64,000 nucleotides of DNA from Zestosphaera sp. (GCA_038843015.1 JAWBSH010000003.1:133343-197342); one strand, 5' to 3'. Counted from the first letter of the stretch, positions 9,491 to 59,300 are shown. Program-made: numbers and translations. Notes: generated by a model from the sequence alone, not told the origin.

Positions 9491-10148
9491 CCTCTCTACT
9501 ACATGAACTGTCTTAGTTCATGAGTCATAAACAAAACCTGATATAAATGTTTGGCAGTTACATATCATTAAAATAGTCTTGATGACCTGATAGTGGTAAA
9601 GACGAGCTCCTAGTTACCGTGGAGTGATTTGCATGATTATCTTGAAAATATATTAATTAACAAATATATTAACACGGAGACTAGCATTATAGCTAAACCA
9701 ACTATTGAGAGCGCTAATCCGCTCGTAATCGTCTTATGTGTATTAGTGCTGGAACATAGATTAAATAGTATAGTCTCTATAGATGGTGTCCACAGGTAAT
9801 AGGTTTGGCATGGCTACTTCATCCTCGAAGTAGCAGGTAATGTCTGAGGTAACTTTAAAACTCTCTAAAACGTTAGGGGGCTTTTAGGAGCTCGTAGGTA
9901 ACTGCAGTCGAGAGTAAGCGTAAGCAGGTTTGGGTGCGTAATAGTAAGCTAATAGAGACACCTAGTAGACGAGGAGCTAGTTAGCAATATCGAGATAGGA
10001 GAATCGCTGGGTTCGCCACTGACGTGTATGCTCTCACTTTCATCATGTACTTTCGCGTTTTAGTAAACTTGCTAAGCTTTAGATAGAGATATTGTATGGA
10101 GATATGACTAATTTACGGGTTTAGAGTAATTTTTAGTTAGGGACTAGT

Positions 10149-27538: not shown

Positions 27539-27919
27539 ATGAGTCTTACACCAGGTATGAAGCACGTGAGGAAATACGTCACAACACAGCAGCATTCTGC
27601 AAAGCATGTGGGTTCAGGGAATGTAGAGGTTCTTTCCACTCCTTCTATGATCCTCTTCATGGAGGAGACTTGCCGCATCTTTGCTGATGAACACCTACCC
27701 GAAGGCCAGACTACTGTAGGGGTTCACGTAGACGTATATCACGTACGTCCAGCACCAATAGGTAGTGAGGTAGAGATACACTCAACTCTACTACAATCTG
27801 ATGGCAGGAAACTTATGTTTTGGGTTGAGGCTTGGTGCTCAGGAGCATTAATAGGTTACGGATTTCACGAGAGAGTTGTGGTAGAAAAAGAAAAGTTTTT
27901 ATCAAAGATTAAGAGCTAA
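27539..27919 (+). CDS. hotdog-fold thioesterase (FlK/COG5496-like)
   Basis: 126 aa. VGSGNVEVLSTPSMILFMEE and VGVHVDVYHVRPAPIGS segments are typical of this small thioesterase family. Confidence 0.65.
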   Translation: MSLTPGMKHVRKYVTTQQHSAKHVGSGNVEVLSTPSMILFMEETCRIFADEHLPEGQTTVGVHVDVYHVRPAPIGSEVEIHSTLLQSDGRKLMFWVEAWCSGALIGYGFHERVVVEKEKFLSKIKS

Positions 27920-27953
27920 TGAAACAATAGTCACTCTGCAAACTATCTTACCC

Positions 27954-28240
27954 AAGACTGTTTGTATGTTGTTTAGTTTTGGTTTTTCTGGTTATTTGGG
28001 TTATTTATGTGGGTTTCGGGAGCTGACGTAAAGGTATATAAGCATCCACGTGTTTTAATAGCTGGGAGCCGATGAGCTGATGAGCCGTTGGCGAGGGACG
28101 AGGCTCTGTGAACCGCTCTTCACCGATGGCTCTGGAGACCCCTACGACACCCCTGGAACCGTAGGCAGGGAGAAAAAAGATAAACAGGTGGGATGAACCC
28201 GTACCCAGAAAAACCAAAACAACTAAAACAACCAGAAAAC
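27954..28240 (+). ncRNA. GC-rich structured intergenic element, copy A (unclassified RNA family)
   Basis: AAGACTGT leader. A perfect 15-bp long-range helix (27977-27991 with 28205-28219) encloses a GC-rich core containing nested hairpins. A 50-nt block is 43/50 identical to copy B with compensatory change. Confidence 0.55.
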
Positions 28241-28316
28241 TTAGCTAACGGATACGGGAAACCACTCAATACTCTAACTTATTTTTATTGTTCAGCGTTT
28301 TAGTTAGGTGGTCTGA

Positions 28317-29405
28317 GTGGATATTGAATCAAAGATTAGGTTAGTAACTAGAGACGTGGCTGAGGTAGTTACTGTAGAAGAACTGAGAAGTCTTCTTGAG
28401 ACGGGTGGTGGGTCCGGGTACTTGGGGTTTGAGCCTAGCGGTATCTTTCACGTGGGTTGGTTTGTGTGGGCTCTCAAATTTAAGGACTTGATTGATGCGG
28501 GAGTTAAGATGAATCTCCTTGCTGCTACTTGGCATGCGTGGGTCAACGACAAATTAGGTGGTGATATGTCTTTAATCAAGACGGCTGCTAAGCACGTGGT
28601 TACGGTGATTGACTCGTTAGGTATCGAAGGGAGGTATAGGCTTGTTTATGCTGAGGACTTAGTCAGCAACCCAGATTACTGGGCTACTTTACTTAAAGTA
28701 GCTAAATCAACTAGCTTAGCTAGAGTGAAAAGAGCTCTGACGATACTAGGTAGGAGAGCTGATGAGGGAGAGTCAGACTTTTCTAAGCTGATATACCCGC
28801 TCATGCAGGTGACAGACATTTTTGAGTTAGGAGTTGATATAGCGTTGGGAGGAACTGACCAGAGGAAAGCACACATGCTTCAGAGAGATGTTGCCGAGAA
28901 GCTGAAGAAGCGTAAAGTTGTAGCTGTTCATACCCACTTAATACCGTCGCTTCAGGGACTTGGTAGAATGGACCTAACAGGCCTTACTGAGGAGGCTCTT
29001 GAGGAACTCATAACAGAACATAAGATGAGTAAGTCGAAGCCGGAATCAGCTATTTTCGTGACAGATTCAGACAGTCTCATAAGAGATAAAATACTTAAAG
29101 CTTACTGCCCGCCCAAGGTCATTGAAGGCAATCCCGTGATAGAGATAGCTAAACACATAATATTTAGAGGTGAGGAAAAGAGGTTGACGATAGACAGGCC
29201 ACAGAAGTTCGGAGGCTCTATAGACGTGTGGTCGCAAGAAGAGCTAATTAAGCTGTACACGAGCGGAATGATTCACCCACTTGATCTCAAAAACGCTGTA
29301 GCTGATTACTTAATCAACTTTATAAGACCTATACGTGACAAGCTACTGAGTAGTAGAGAATATAAAGAAATGATTGAAGTGATAACGCAGTCTATCTCTA
29401 GGTAG
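28317..29405 (+). CDS. tyrS: tyrosyl-tRNA synthetase (archaeal type)
   Basis: Collinear with my recollection of M. jannaschii TyrRS: GFEPSG, YPLMQVTDI, GGTDQRK, KMSKS, KAYCPPKVIEGNPVIEIAK, PQKFGG and HPLDLKNAVA. Confidence 0.9.
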   Translation: MDIESKIRLVTRDVAEVVTVEELRSLLETGGGSGYLGFEPSGIFHVGWFVWALKFKDLIDAGVKMNLLAATWHAWVNDKLGGDMSLIKTAAKHVVTVIDSLGIEGRYRLVYAEDLVSNPDYWATLLKVAKSTSLARVKRALTILGRRADEGESDFSKLIYPLMQVTDIFELGVDIALGGTDQRKAHMLQRDVAEKLKKRKVVAVHTHLIPSLQGLGRMDLTGLTEEALEELITEHKMSKSKPESAIFVTDSDSLIRDKILKAYCPPKVIEGNPVIEIAKHIIFRGEEKRLTIDRPQKFGGSIDVWSQEELIKLYTSGMIHPLDLKNAVADYLINFIRPIRDKLLSSREYKEMIEVITQSISR

Positions 29406-29502: not shown

Positions 29503-29856
29503 TTAAGCTTTAACCTGTTGATTCTTGAGAACCGGTCTTCTAGTTCTGGCCAGAAGATTCGGTGACTCCAGCTCTTCTAACCTTCTCTCTAAAGTGTCTA
29601 ACTTATCTATTAAGTCGTTCATAAGTTTTTCAATCATGTAGATCTTGCCCTTAACGTACGTGAGTTCACCGTCATAATCATTTAGTTTCTGGAGAGTTGG
29701 GTTCTCGACTTGTATGTTTCCATAGAGTCCCTGCTTAATGAATATCTTGATTAAGTCTGTTACTTGAATGCCCATACTATTAGCTAGCTGCCGCAACTCT
29801 TCATAGAGCTTATCCGGGAGTGACAGATGCACTGTTGGAATAGTCTTCATCCTCAA
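29503..29856 (-). CDS. ribbon-helix-helix (CopG-like) protein with C-terminal coiled coil
   Basis: The N-terminal VHLSLPDKLYEELRQLANSMGIQVTDLIKIFIKQGL fits a beta-strand plus two helices RHH pattern. The C-terminal half is heptad-like. Confidence 0.55.
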   Translation of the reverse strand: MRMKTIPTVHLSLPDKLYEELRQLANSMGIQVTDLIKIFIKQGLYGNIQVENPTLQKLNDYDGELTYVKGKIYMIEKLMNDLIDKLDTLERRLEELESPNLLARTRRPVLKNQQVKA

Positions 29857-29982: not shown

Positions 29983-30165
29983 ATGATGAGAATAGTGACT
30001 TTCAAATTAGATGAGATAACGTTGAGGAAGCTTGATGAGTTAGCTTCTAAGTTAGGTATTTCTAGGTCCGAAATAATAAGGCTAGCACTCCTTAGCTACA
30101 TGTCGAAAGAAAACATAAGTCCTAAAAAACAGGGAGTTAAGATAAGGCACGTTGTTCTGACTTAA
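29983..30165 (+). CDS. small ribbon-helix-helix (CopG family) DNA-binding protein
   Basis: RIVTFKLDEITLRKLDELASKLGISRSEIIRLALLSYM is a canonical RHH pattern. Length is 60 aa. Confidence 0.6.
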   Translation: MMRIVTFKLDEITLRKLDELASKLGISRSEIIRLALLSYMSKENISPKKQGVKIRHVVLT

Positions 30166-35577: not shown

Positions 35578-36255
35578 TTGCCTTGTAAGGTAAGTGTGGC
35601 GGCTTTTGACTTAGACGGTGTCTTAATAAGGTGGAGATCTTCCTGGAGAGCTCTACACGAGTATTTCGGCTCTTTAAGTTTAATCGTTGAAAGTAATGAC
35701 GCCGAGAAATTCTTGAGAGGCGAAATAACTTATGAGGAATGGATGAGGAGAGATTTAGAAGCTATAATCAAAGCTCTTGGAAAGCCCCCAACTAGAGAAG
35801 AAATAATTAAAGCATTCTCTAGGTATGAGCTAGTTGACGGTGCCAAAGACTTAATCAACTTCTTGAAAGAGAGAGGAGTCTACACCCTCATCGTTAGTGG
35901 GGGGATTGACTTACTAGCTGAGATTATAAAGAGAGAGCTAGGTGTAGACGCGGCATTCGCTAACAGGCTAGTCTTTGACGAGAAGGGATACCTAATACCG
36001 AGAGGTATTGAAGTAGTTAATCCTCTCAAAAAAGGAGAACTGTTGAAGAAGTTATCAATACAGCTTAGAGTACCACTTAGTGAATTTATGTATGTAGGAG
36101 ACACTGAATGGGATTTTGAGGCTTTAAACCTTGTTGGGTATCCCGTCCTCCTCAACTACGGCGACGTAAAGCCTTCAATAGAGTCTAAATACATTATAGT
36201 CAACACCTTATATGAGGTAATAGAGTTTCTCACGAAATGCTTTAACCGTAGTTAA
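35578..36255 (+). CDS. HAD-superfamily phosphatase (phosphoserine phosphatase-like)
   Basis: FDLDGVL motif I, VSGG motif II and GDTEWD motif IV. Confidence 0.7.
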   Translation: MPCKVSVAAFDLDGVLIRWRSSWRALHEYFGSLSLIVESNDAEKFLRGEITYEEWMRRDLEAIIKALGKPPTREEIIKAFSRYELVDGAKDLINFLKERGVYTLIVSGGIDLLAEIIKRELGVDAAFANRLVFDEKGYLIPRGIEVVNPLKKGELLKKLSIQLRVPLSEFMYVGDTEWDFEALNLVGYPVLLNYGDVKPSIESKYIIVNTLYEVIEFLTKCFNRS

Positions 36256-36261
36256 GAACTC

Positions 36262-36548
36262 TTTGAGGGGGTTCGGGTTTCATGCTGTTTGATATCGACC
36301 CTTGGCTTCATTGACCTCAAGGCGCCTTTCATCGGAGACCTTATCATTGGTCTCTACTCTTTCAGGGTAACCCCAACTCGTAGCCCCTCACCAGTTTCAC
36401 GACTGCGGAGAAACCCCCACATACTGGCTTTAGACGCCCCACCCACTCGAGTCTTCACCACACACCCACATCGTGAGCGAGCTCAACCCACAATAAAGCA
36501 ACTTACATCAAACCCCTTACAAACCTTTACAAAACACAAAACAGTTGC
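36262..36548 (-). ncRNA. GC-rich structured intergenic element, copy C (same family as A/B/D)
   Basis: The reverse complement starts GCAACTGTTTTGTGTTTTGTAAAGGTTTGTAAGGGG, homologous to the copy D leader. The closing helix GGGGUUUG/CGAACCCC contains a G.U pair only on the minus-strand reading. Confidence 0.5.
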
Positions 36549-46803: not shown

Positions 46804-47116
46804 AAGACTGTCTATAGGTTGTTTTGGTTGTTTCTATGGATTCCGAGAATTATCTAGGATATAAATGATTAAGTGTTTGAGTGTTTTTGGAGTCTGTGAG
46901 CTGATGAGTCGTTGGTAAGGGACGAGACTCTGTGAATCACTCTTCGCTGTAGGAGTTGGGTGAACTGCTGGCGGTAGCTGGAGACGTGCTCTTGCAGGCG
47001 GGGTGGGAGAAGAATAAGCTGTCGAGAAGTAGAGGGCTGGGAGGCTGAATACGAAATAACATGAAAACCTGTGAAGAGCCGTTCACCGAGAAACGACTTT
47101 AGCAAAACACTTGTTT
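46804..47116 (+). ncRNA. GC-rich structured intergenic element, copy B (same family as A)
   Basis: AAGACTGT leader 6 nt after the MATE stop. The core block at 46898-46947 is 43/50 identical to 28074-28123, with a C:G to U:A compensatory change. 5'/3' closing complementarity runs GTGTTTT...AGTC with GACT...AAAACAC. Confidence 0.55.
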
Positions 47117-53195: not shown

Positions 53196-53714
53196 TTATC
53201 TTAGGCCTAATTTCTTTCTGCAAGATTCTGTTATTGTCATTAAGTAACTTATTAACTGTAATTTTTCTGATGCTAGTGCTTTAATTAAGTTGGCGTGCTT
53301 CTCTAAGTCTTCTTTAGTGAGTAAGTTGATGCTAGTTGTGTGGCTCCTAAATTTAATCTCTAGCGTCTTGTCTCTTAAAGTAATGCTTAAGTGTTTGTTA
53401 CTTACTGATACCTCGCCTTCCTTGCTGTTGTATGAGACTGTTGCAAGAGGTGATCTATGAATTACTGAAGTTGTTTGGTCGCTACTAACGTAGGTTAGGC
53501 CTTCACACAACTTAAGTATTGCCGGTCTTGAGCTTTCTAAGTTTGCCTCAATCGTGGAGAGTGTGGTCACTAGTGACTTTATCTTAGTGAGTACTTCGCT
53601 TACTATAGTTACGCTAATAAGTCCTACTCTACTAAACTCAGAGAATTCTCTAGTCCTCATATCTTCGTAAGCTCTCAGAGCTTCATCAACTACTTCTAAA
53701 GCATTCTTGAACAT
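53196..53714 (-). CDS. hypothetical protein
   Basis: 172 aa ORF with no recognisable motif. The N-terminal part is helical and the centre is beta-rich. Confidence 0.4.
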   Translation of the reverse strand: MFKNALEVVDEALRAYEDMRTREFSEFSRVGLISVTIVSEVLTKIKSLVTTLSTIEANLESSRPAILKLCEGLTYVSSDQTTSVIHRSPLATVSYNSKEGEVSVSNKHLSITLRDKTLEIKFRSHTTSINLLTKEDLEKHANLIKALASEKLQLISYLMTITESCRKKLGLR

Positions 53715-54101: not shown

Positions 54102-54461
54102 TATATTATTTACATAGCTTCATAAAAAAGACGGCGACTAGACCTTTTTAAGGTCTAAAGAATATTAGTCATTAGGCATTGAATAATACCTAAGCATTTT
54201 TTCATTATTTGTGAGGCCTGTATTATTAGGGCTAATGAGTATTACTTTTTACGACTTTACGTAGGAATAAAAAAGTTATAATTTCTGGTCTCCCCACCCC
54301 GAATACGTAGTTTAGTAGAGGGTCGGGTAAGGGATCTTGAGTGTGGCTTGCTCGACTTAGTTGTATTGAGAGAGCCTAGCTAGATCGCCGCGAGCGCTTA
54401 GATTTTTAAGCCTCCATACATCTTAGTAGTATTTTAGGATGGGTAGCAAAGGTACAGAGAC

Positions 54462-58521: not shown

Positions 58522-58647
58522 TTTTCGCATAACTGAGGTAGCGTCAAGACAAGAATATAAAAAGAGTTTAGAAATTCTAGCCACGTATTTTTAAGCTCAA
58601 GTAGTTCAAAACCTCTTTTTCTTGAAGAGCTTAAAACTACTGTTAGG

Positions 58648-58721
58648 TGGGGCCGCGGGGATTTGAACCCCGGACCACGGGGACCCAAGCCCCGCATTCT
58701 ACCAAGCTAAACTACGGCCCC
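58648..58721 (-). tRNA. tRNA-Pro (anticodon UGG)
   Basis: The reverse complement folds as a 74-nt cloverleaf. The acceptor stem is GGGGCCG/CGGCCCC. The anticodon stem CGGGG/CCCCG carries the loop CUUGGGU. The T arm is CGGGG-UUCAAAU-CCCCG. The discriminator is A, there is no intron, and CCA is not encoded. Confidence 0.9.
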
Positions 58722-59054
58722 CACCTAACAAAACTAGAAACCCAAATATATAAAGCTAATCACAACAAGTCAAACTTCTTAAGTCTTTAAGATAAACTAT
58801 CAAGAGATAAACCTGCTAACAACCTCCAAGTTTAAGTCTTAGTTTTCTCCTAATCATCCGCTCAAGACTCAGCAGTCAAGAAGACTATAAAACTACTTTA
58901 TTATAGTAAAGTGAATAAAACTAAACTTATGGTCTTAGTTTCTCGAAAATGTCTCAATCTTTAGGAGTTGTAAGTATTAAAAATAATTGCTGGTTGCGAA
59001 TTGTAAGGAGCTAAAATGCTTGTTTTCAGATAGGGCATATTTTAAGTAGGGTTC

Positions 59055-59300
59055 ACAACTGTTTTAGTGTGTTAGGTTTATAAAGGTTTTTGTAGGATTT
59101 TTTTCATGATGATGAGAGATACTTCAAGCCACCTGAAGATGGAACTAGATGTGAGCCCCGTGCCGTTGGGCTTGAAGGGTGCTCATGACCCCCGCGTGGA
59201 GTGGCTAGTAGCCACAGTGAATCGCGGGGTAGAGGCACAACCCGTCCTAGAAAAACCTAGGACGGGAAACGGTAATCTCTGAGAGCTTCTGAAGTGCTAG
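59055..59300 (+). ncRNA. GC-rich structured intergenic element, copy D (leader homologous to C; box C/D-like termini)
   Basis: Leader ACAACTGTTTTAGTGTGTTAGG. The 5' AUGAUGAGAGAU (59109-20) pairs through AGAGAU/AUCUCU with the 3' AUCUCUGAGAG (59275-85). Internal helices are perfect: 7 bp at 59190-96/59223-29 and 10 bp at 59241-50/59257-66. Confidence 0.55.
59077..59084 (+). promoter_or_regulatory. candidate archaeal TATA box (TTTATAAA) for element D
   Basis: It matches the archaeal TATA consensus and lies about 22-28 nt upstream of the AUGAUGAUGAG 5' motif of element D. Confidence 0.35.

Follow-up and report, generated by a model that had tools for sequence, protein, structure and literature searches.

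What is the GC-rich, seemingly gene-less block that separates a thioesterase gene from tyrS in a crenarchaeal genome? The block lies in a 64,000-nucleotide (nt) stretch of Zestosphaera sp. (GCA_038843015.1, JAWBSH010000003.1:133343-197342), the whole of which was analysed and is hereafter called the window; its sequence is crenarchaeal with a G+C content of 43%, and its TyrS is 100% identical to proteins of several hot-spring metagenome-assembled genomes (MAGs) and 78% identical to Zestosphaera sp. An earlier note, made from the sequence alone, had described the block, copy A, as an unclassified structured RNA bracketed by a perfect 15-base-pair (bp) helix, with three related copies elsewhere in the window. 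We consider it likely that copy A is a miniature non-autonomous element of the IS200/IS605 type, of the kind called palindrome-associated transposable elements (PATEs) or miniature inverted-repeat transposable elements (MITEs), produced by internal deletion from a parent of ~1.47 kilobases (kb) and carrying a probable guide-RNA gene. What is new is an RNA family outside Rfam, a free-standing RNA gene, its flipped orientation relative to the protein gene and its place in a clade thought to be immobile.

An insertion with defined ends

The gap between the thioesterase open reading frame (ORF; 27539-27919) and tyrS (28317-29405) measures 397 nt. It holds no credible coding sequence, its ORFs being short, overlapping and at most 70 amino acids (aa) long, and its core is GC-rich, both as the earlier note had stated; the G+C fraction is 0.56-0.58 at 28050-28199, 0.32-0.38 in the flanks and 0.43 in the window. 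Three relatives with the same gene order (L004, L005 and L006, with TyrS 89%, 85% and 78% identical to that of the window) have gaps of 89, 41 and 88 nt. The empty site of L004 reads CAAGTCT/CAATATTCTAATTTATTTTTATC, its right part beginning CAATAT, and the filled site of the window reads CAAGACT/27960-28266/CAATACTCTAACTTATTTTTATT, where the element ends in CCACT and the right flank begins CAATAC. Copy A is thus 307 bp of extra DNA placed directly 3' of GACT, with neither target duplication nor loss. The following parts can be distinguished.

27956-27959 (+): target tetranucleotide GACT, resembling a transposon-associated motif (TAM), directly 5' of the insertion
27960-28266 (+): copy A, non-autonomous element comprising left end, promoter, RNA gene and right end; absent from L004-L006
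27960-28022 (+): T/G-rich left-end leader, aligning with L008 1868->1806
27977-27991 (+): 5' arm of the 15-bp inverted repeat; lies within the left end and precedes the promoter
28034-28041 (+): TATA-like box GTATATAA, ~24 nt before the conserved RNA start
28062-28266 (+): ωRNA-like structured RNA scaffold, with a putative start near 28065, ending at the right end
28068-28104 (+): domain P1, consisting of CCGAUGAGCUGAUGAG, a covarying 3-bp hairpin and GAGGGACGAGG; possible kink-turn(s)
28116-28172 (+): helix P2 (28116-24/28164-72) enclosing hairpin P3 (28127-36/28152-61)
28187-28266 (+): terminal domain, with GGUGG (28187-91) paired to CCACU (28262-66) and a stem at 28198-28207/28249-58
28208-28248 (+): C/A-rich loop of the terminal hairpin, overlapping most of the 3' arm (28205-28219)

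The same behaviour recurs elsewhere. A pattern taken from the 57-nt block common to copies A and B led to homologues in 3 genomes, and in these three other MAGs (L007, L008 and L009) elements ~84% identical to copy A stand in unrelated contexts, those of L007 and L009 comprising the leader, TATA box, core and tail. The left end follows GACT, AACT or GACC in ~20 independent copies that otherwise stand in unrelated flanking sequence. The ends are asymmetric, with GT(C/T)TGTATG... on the left and ...CAACCACT on the right. Reading ACT as a 3-bp target duplication was rejected because CCACT is the conserved, base-paired end of the RNA. One strain carries the element at the same site as copy A (L001 635-959 against window 27950-28275): its flanks are 99.5-99.8% identical to those of the window and its element 92.5%, with 23 differences in 308 nt, a divergence that fits replacement of the copy by re-insertion, homing or gene conversion.

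A covarying RNA behind a conserved TATA box

A consensus structure of 46 pairs and a covariance model, R1, were derived from an alignment of 21 distinct homologues. Compensatory double changes were found at 18 of the 46 pairs, paired cells reached 96.2% as compared with 40-48% in slid controls, and the observed value was attained by none of 500 shuffles on four of five measures and by 1 of 500 on the fifth. Copy A scores 166 bits with R1 (E 6e-41). The suggestion of a structured RNA outside Rfam is therefore strongly supported by comparative covariation. Both strands of the gap also fold better than shuffled sequence.

In P1, 28068-70 pairs with 28102-04 (alignment pairs 7-9/42-44) around a small hairpin, 28084-86/28090-92 (alignment 23-25/29-31), in which GC, CG and UA variants occur. 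Helices P2 and P3 contain 8 pairs with compensatory changes and the terminal domain 6, the outermost span of the terminal stem being 28187-28207/28249-66, so that the right-end hairpin too is backed by covariation. Conservation and pairing stop at CCAC(U/C) in all 21 homologues, beyond which the flanks are unrelated; GGUGG, directly before the terminal hairpin, pairs with the cleavage-proximal CCACU, so that the closure of the fold coincides exactly with the right end. The TATA box keeps its position in copies A and B and in every homologue, short or full-length. Eight pairs are mainly G·U in the alignment and many U·G pairs are invariant, which fixes the functional strand as the one opposite the tnpB-like gene described below (+ in the window). 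An assignment to the opposite strand, prompted by mismatches in the terminal hairpin, was discarded, since these mismatches occur in three short copies only and the invariant U·G pairs settle the strand.

The helices that had been proposed inside the core exist as complementary strings but not as conserved structure in the 21 homologues. GAGCC (28082-86)/GGCTC gives way to the two P1 pairings above, GTGAA/TTCAC falls in a subgroup-specific insertion where it competes with the conserved 28116-24/28164-72, and CCTACG/CGTAGG is confined to the window's lineage (including L001-L003, which share the site) and absent from the other homologues.

Searches of known families agree with the failure of the earlier hand-fitting: no Rfam family matches the gap, be it tRNA, box C/D, H/ACA, RNase P, SRP, riboswitch or sotRNA. 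At gathering thresholds the whole window yielded only a tRNA-Pro, a relaxed search of 27920-28320 gave only noise (E ~7), and neither gathering nor relaxed thresholds produced a usable match for copies A, C and D. Box C/D sRNAs carry C (RUGAUGA) and D (CUGA) boxes at their ends, together with C'/D' boxes and 12-nt guides, in a length of ~60 nt. This class was rejected for copy A, whose RNA has an invariant C-box-like CUGAUGA but measures ~200 nt and lacks a terminal D box, and C/D covariance models gave no match to copy A. Two further classes were fitted to the core by hand and set aside, the hammerhead because CUGAUGA is present without the GAAA core, and H/ACA for want of an ACA and a pocket.

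The sequence of P1 (alignment A4, columns 7-44) merits separate mention. Its 5' strand has two tandem GAUGAG motifs, which include the invariant CUGAUGA, its 3' strand has two CGAGG motifs, and the two strands surround the covarying 3-bp hairpin; they resemble one or two kink-turns (K-turns), a possible binding site for L7Ae.

The parent element and its protein

A full-length copy in L008 reveals the parentage of copy A. Its leader (1872->1800) and RNA (598->402) are ~1.2 kb apart, and between them two ORFs lie on the opposite strand, one of 53 aa encoding a ribbon-helix-helix (RHH) protein (635-796) and one of 362 aa (766-1854). The leader of copy A aligns with the full-length left end and with the antisense of the last ~16 codons of this tnpB-like ORF, so the short copies are internal-deletion derivatives. 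A TnpB-related ORF is enclosed by the same ends in L008 and about 25 metagenome loci.

The 362-aa protein scores above the cut-off of NCBIfam TIGR01766 ('IS200/IS605 family accessory protein TnpB-related') and belongs to Pfam PF27229 ('SSO2105_N'). A local Pfam and PDB sequence search returned no match to the L008 protein, whereas NCBIfam and a fold search succeeded; we found no papers on 'SSO2105' in the literature. The 353 relatives detected come from Desulfurococcales, Zestosphaera, Ignisphaera, Vulcanisaeta and Staphylothermus. Residues D201, E265, D330 and H332 are invariant (alignment A3), as is the RuvC-III motif LD[KR]H, and there is no Cys cluster between YTS and RuvC-III and hence no zinc ribbon. 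In a fold search with the AlphaFold model (pLDDT 87, pTM 0.79), the predicted structure had Cas12f, Cas12k and TnpB as its top PDB matches, which extend over its full length, with E down to 5e-10. ISC1217 was considered as the parent and rejected, being a DDE/IS4-like transposon.

ORFs for Y1 TnpA (Y1_Tnp) adjoin elements in L090 and L009. The two tnpA genes are homologous and lie just past the RNA 3' end, that of L009 (258-620) being truncated C-terminally; L090 1-4089 is a nest of IS200/IS605 genes, with two PF27229 genes, Y1 TnpA and fragments of OrfB_IS605 and Cas12f1-like_TNB. We also observed that the RHH ORF, which is conserved and 50-53 aa long, runs into the beginning of the tnpB-like gene (L008 635-796; L013 1379-1531) and that the ~50 bp from the RHH ORF to the RNA gene contain two back-to-back TATA boxes in L008 and L013.

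The RNA accompanies the protein across loci

To what extent do RNA and protein travel together? A metagenome scan with the protein alignment gave 80 loci, and R1 was searched in 83 tnpB-like loci, in 60 of which it finds the RNA, with bit scores that drop as protein identity drops. Wherever the protein is at least ~69% identical and the upstream DNA is covered, the RNA lies upstream, at a fixed distance and on the opposite strand; such upstream RNAs are preceded by a TATA box and end in ...CACGGGCAACCAC(T/C), after which the flanks differ. At most loci with an R1 match the RNA is upstream of the RHH-tnpB operon and divergent from it. In 11 loci of a sister subfamily (L037, L041, L042, L044-L046, L048 (for example, 2644-2809), L051, L059, L072 and L085), the RNA instead sits 30-100 nt downstream of the gene and co-oriented with it, with its own TATA box (TTTTTATAC) and a short terminal loop, which is the canonical ωRNA position although without overlap with tnpB.

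These two layouts imply that the protein module was inverted relative to the RNA in the window's lineage, and that the RNA stayed with the protein through the flip is the strongest argument for regarding it as the protein's partner. From these comparisons the RNA is the probable guide RNA of a TnpB-like nuclease, and its terminal hairpin and ...AAC... right end resemble the ends of canonical crenarchaeal TnpB ωRNAs.

Proposed mechanism and points against it

Read in the orientation of the RNA, the parent consists of a left end, the tnpB-like and RHH genes on the opposite strand, back-to-back TATA boxes, the RNA gene and a right end; the deletion removed both protein genes and retained the left end, RNA promoter, RNA and right end. 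The steps that follow are modelled on the IS200/IS605 and OMEGA paradigm. The RNA would be transcribed from its own promoter across the right end, thereby gaining a 3' guide from the flanking DNA as TnpB ωRNAs do, and a TnpB-like protein acting in trans would use it to recognize the emptied site (GACT plus the right flank). A Y1 TnpA, likewise in trans, would excise the top strand and insert it 3' of GACT, and the RHH protein would probably repress the back-to-back promoters, by analogy with Arc.

We extend this tentatively, as a possibility somewhat short of an even case, to the RHH-TnpB clade as a whole, which might comprise active IS200/IS605-type transposons with a free-standing, promoter-driven guide RNA and, in one lineage, a flipped protein module. 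If so, their miniatures would distribute independent guide-RNA genes over the genomes of hyperthermophiles, and the guide of each would come from its own flank and differ from the others; the guide-RNA gene of the clade may contain K-turns; and the co-evolving complementarity between left end and terminal loop, treated below, would be a new feature of transposition or RNA maturation.

Several points weigh against this account. The window contains no tnpB-like, canonical tnpB or tnpA gene as judged by Pfam on ten ORFs and by tblastn, so all four copies are non-autonomous. The empty sites of the relatives have GTCT instead of GACT. No left-end hairpin of the IS608 type was found in copy A, whose left end complements the right-end loop. 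The PF27229 protein has His for the usual catalytic Asp of RuvC-III, and the clade has been proposed to be an immobile toxin-antitoxin pair, not a transposon nuclease (PMC10691335). Both termini of the RNA and its continuation into the flank are predictions from sequence. Finally, the window copy may be decaying, given two unpaired substitutions in P2 together with mismatches in the terminal stem: it has A at both 28122 and 28167, breaking two P2 pairs, where L001 carries two Gs and L003 a single one, at 28122.

Alternative explanations

The alternative that survives best, although we judge it unlikely, keeps the RNA as partner of the RHH-TnpB-like module but takes that module for a toxin-antitoxin-like or transcription-regulating system, guided or regulated by the RNA, instead of a homing nuclease; transposition would then have spread the short copies as orphan RNA genes or promoters, some of them possibly co-opted to drive neighbours such as tyrS. 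It draws on the RuvC-III signature D-K-H in place of D-R-D, on the fact that RHH (Arc) proteins repress IS605 promoters, on the position of copies A, B and D, all of which precede the next gene in the same orientation, and on the toxin-antitoxin role proposed for the archaeal RHH/MazE-TnpB clade (PMC10691335). However, the elements have defined ends and a target motif, and both empty sites and deletion derivatives exist, which is how a transposon behaves and not a fixed toxin-antitoxin locus; moreover, the invariant D201, E265, D330 and H332 are compatible with an active, rearranged site.

A host structural RNA of ~290 nt, with the 15-bp helix as a processing stem like those of archaeal rRNA precursors, is very improbable. 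The repeat itself is as described: the reverse complement of TTTTGGTTTTTCTGG (27977-27991) stands without mismatch at 28205-28219. It extends to 19 nt at 95% and then into further imperfect arms, and it exceeds chance, the 15-mer occurring at these two places only in 64 kb (expected 0.19). The + strand also folds well (z = -4.1), and circular isoforms of transposon guide RNAs (ωRNA) have been reported from other archaea (PMC12558985). Yet the helix does not close the RNA, because 43 nt separate the 5' arm from the conserved TATA box downstream of it, so that closure would require transcription to start far upstream, and the 3' arm has its first 3 nt in the stem of the terminal hairpin and the rest in the loop. 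Nor does it suit a processing stem for excision or circularization: ~1.3 kb with an antisense gene separates the arms in full-length elements, the syntenic site is empty in the three close relatives, and the subfamily with a downstream RNA lacks the large loop that bears the 3' arm, its RNA being otherwise conserved. Archaeal bulge-helix-bulge motifs have two opposite 3-nt bulges separated by a 4-bp helix, in a long-range stem within one transcript; no such motif is present here, the predicted long-range helix being a continuous 16-bp stem. In view of the circular isoforms reported elsewhere the copy A RNA itself may circularize, but this would not use the 15-bp helix.

The helix is instead a subterminal inverted repeat that connects the left end with the terminal-hairpin loop, and it may pair both ends in a single-stranded transposition intermediate. 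To judge from the comparison of subfamilies, the complementarity of leader and loop is not accidental: a second subfamily has it too, in another sequence, and leader-versus-loop scores block by subfamily (13-20 and 12-23 within, 7-13 across), although it is weak in a third.

Scarcely credible, too, is a classical MITE of a DDE-type transposon, in which the repeat would be a terminal inverted repeat and the GC-rich core a functionless passenger. Such a reading suits a small, multi-copy, non-coding and insertion-polymorphic element with an inverted repeat near both ends, but the repeat is subterminal and its arms asymmetric, with 17 nt outside the left arm and 47 nt outside the right, target-site duplications are absent and insertion occurs 3' of (G/A)ACT in every case, the parent encodes a TnpB-fold protein and not a DDE transposase, and the core has undergone compensatory evolution behind a conserved promoter. 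A decayed protein gene or a chance GC-rich patch can be dismissed, for although two ORFs, of 70 aa (28005-28217, minus strand) and 38 aa, overlap the core, substitutions in the 21 homologues follow base pairing and not codons, the frames are not conserved and indels occur throughout the alignment.

Relation to known systems

The preferred reading, a miniature IS200/IS605-type element with a guide-RNA gene, places copy A next to the ωRNA (reRNA) of TnpB as known from ISDra2 and the OMEGA systems. In both, an RNA of ~200 nt stands at the right end with a scaffold that stops at the boundary, co-occurs and co-diverges with a TnpB-fold protein and is matched by a tetranucleotide in the TAM position at the left end; part of the copy A RNA family even sits just downstream of the gene. 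The differences are that the RNA of the window's lineage has its own TATA box, is divergent from the RHH-tnpB operon and does not overlap the 3' end of tnpB, that the copy A RNA has no Rfam match, and that the parent protein lacks a zinc finger and has His in RuvC-III.

Among miniature elements, PATEs are non-autonomous IS200/IS605 derivatives. Copy A shares with them its shortness, the absence of genes, the retention of both ends, insertion 3' of a short motif without duplication, and the retention of a guide-RNA region. It differs in its internal archaeal RNA promoter and in the 19-40-nt complementarity between left end and right-end loop; moreover, PATE copies are near-identical, whereas those of the window have diverged highly from each other. 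The Sulfolobus MITEs SM1-SM4 are likewise small non-autonomous mobile elements of crenarchaeal genomes, but they derive from DDE-type insertion sequences, with terminal inverted repeats and target duplications, and no structured RNA gene is known in them.

On the protein side, a close known system is the archaeal RIIIr-4 RHH/MazE-TnpB clade, described as non-mobile, with a proposed toxin-antitoxin role and a guide RNA conjectured in the 3' untranslated region (Altae-Tran et al. 2023; PMC10691335). This clade and the parent element both have a crenarchaeal TnpB-like protein encoded directly after a small RHH gene, without a C4 zinc finger and with Asp replaced by His in RuvC-III, and these shared features, as opposed to a tree, fit the identification of PF27229 with this clade. 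Here, by contrast, the modules lie between transposon ends, with empty sites and deletion derivatives, and the RNA is mostly upstream on the other strand. The haloarchaeal sotRNA/ωRNA families RF02656 and RF02657 are also archaeal IS200/IS605-associated RNAs, and the circular ωRNA isoforms reported (PMC12558985) echo the circularization suggested in the earlier note; these RNAs differ from the copy A RNA in lineage and gene layout, and copy A matches no Rfam family.

An orphan structured RNA thereby becomes a testable system, with an uncharacterized thermophilic TnpB-like protein, a probable guide RNA whose structure is backed by covariation, defined transposon ends and GACT as a candidate TAM. 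The system is relevant to the question of how guide RNAs of TnpB become independent genes, a step towards arrangements like those of trans-activating CRISPR RNA (tracrRNA) and CRISPR, and it calls into question the immobility ascribed to the RHH-TnpB clade. For annotation, GC-rich intergenic islands in hyperthermophiles can be transposon-borne RNA genes and not host RNAs; the 64-kb window has four such elements.

Other copies in the window

The three further copies that had been listed as related to copy A are of the same element type, but only the one at 46.8 kb belongs to the same RNA family.

46810-47098 (+): copy B, with GACT at 46806-09; chimeric, its 5' part like copy A and its 3' part like the L034 type
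36224-36542 (-): copy C, with a leader after AACT, a TATA box, a GC-rich core and a 3' hairpin plus GAGAAAC; right boundary approximate
59061-59272 (+): copy D, after AACT, with a TATA box at 59078-85, an ωRNA region and the right end ...GGGAAACGG

Copy B scores 45 bits with R1 (E 5e-10) and has leader, TATA box and 5' domain in common with copy A, including a 57-nt block that is 84% identical and contains compensatory changes; the RNAs that precede the genes of a second tnpB-like subfamily (L031 and L034-36) match its 3' half. Copy C occupies a gap of 330 nt that measures 42 nt in L004 and 33 nt in L005, the empty site in L004 being GGCAACT/CACTCG; neither R1 nor BLAST gave a match to it, and no relative of its RNA was found. 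The predicted end of a HAD-hydrolase ORF (35578-36255) runs ~30 nt into the 3' end of copy C, and the insertion point in L004 is 16 nt past the stop codon of the HAD-hydrolase gene; the insertion may have changed the C-terminus of this protein.

Copy D is homologous to the 3' ends and right ends of canonical TnpB ORFs with zinc ribbon and DRD motif in L068 (ORF ...CPSCGFMHDRDVIGAVNL...) and L058, and short versions of it occur in L021 and L075; this homology identifies it as a non-autonomous derivative of a canonical TnpB element. With R1 it matches in the terminal hairpin only (E 0.59), and an alignment of five D-type RNAs was too poor for covariation. Within copy D, 59105-59172, which starts AUGAUGA, shows a sub-threshold match to the box C/D RNA sR42 (16.9 bits against a gathering threshold of 38, E 0.06).

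Minor observations

A weak R1 match at 53562-53686 (-; 13 bits, E 0.07) falls within an ORF (53196-53714) and is probably due to chance. Downstream of tyrS, a pair of small RHH_5/RHH_1 genes (29503-29856, -, and 29983-30165, +) is kept in L004-L006 and is thus unrelated to the insertion. Elsewhere in the window, 9491-10148 is a 658-nt gap with no long ORF, and a GC-rich patch (0.50) at 54290-54400 lies in a 360-nt gap preceding an ORF of 1204 aa. The tRNA-Pro (UGG) gene at 58646-58780 (-) is T/G-rich around and upstream of its TATA box, a composition like that of the element leaders.

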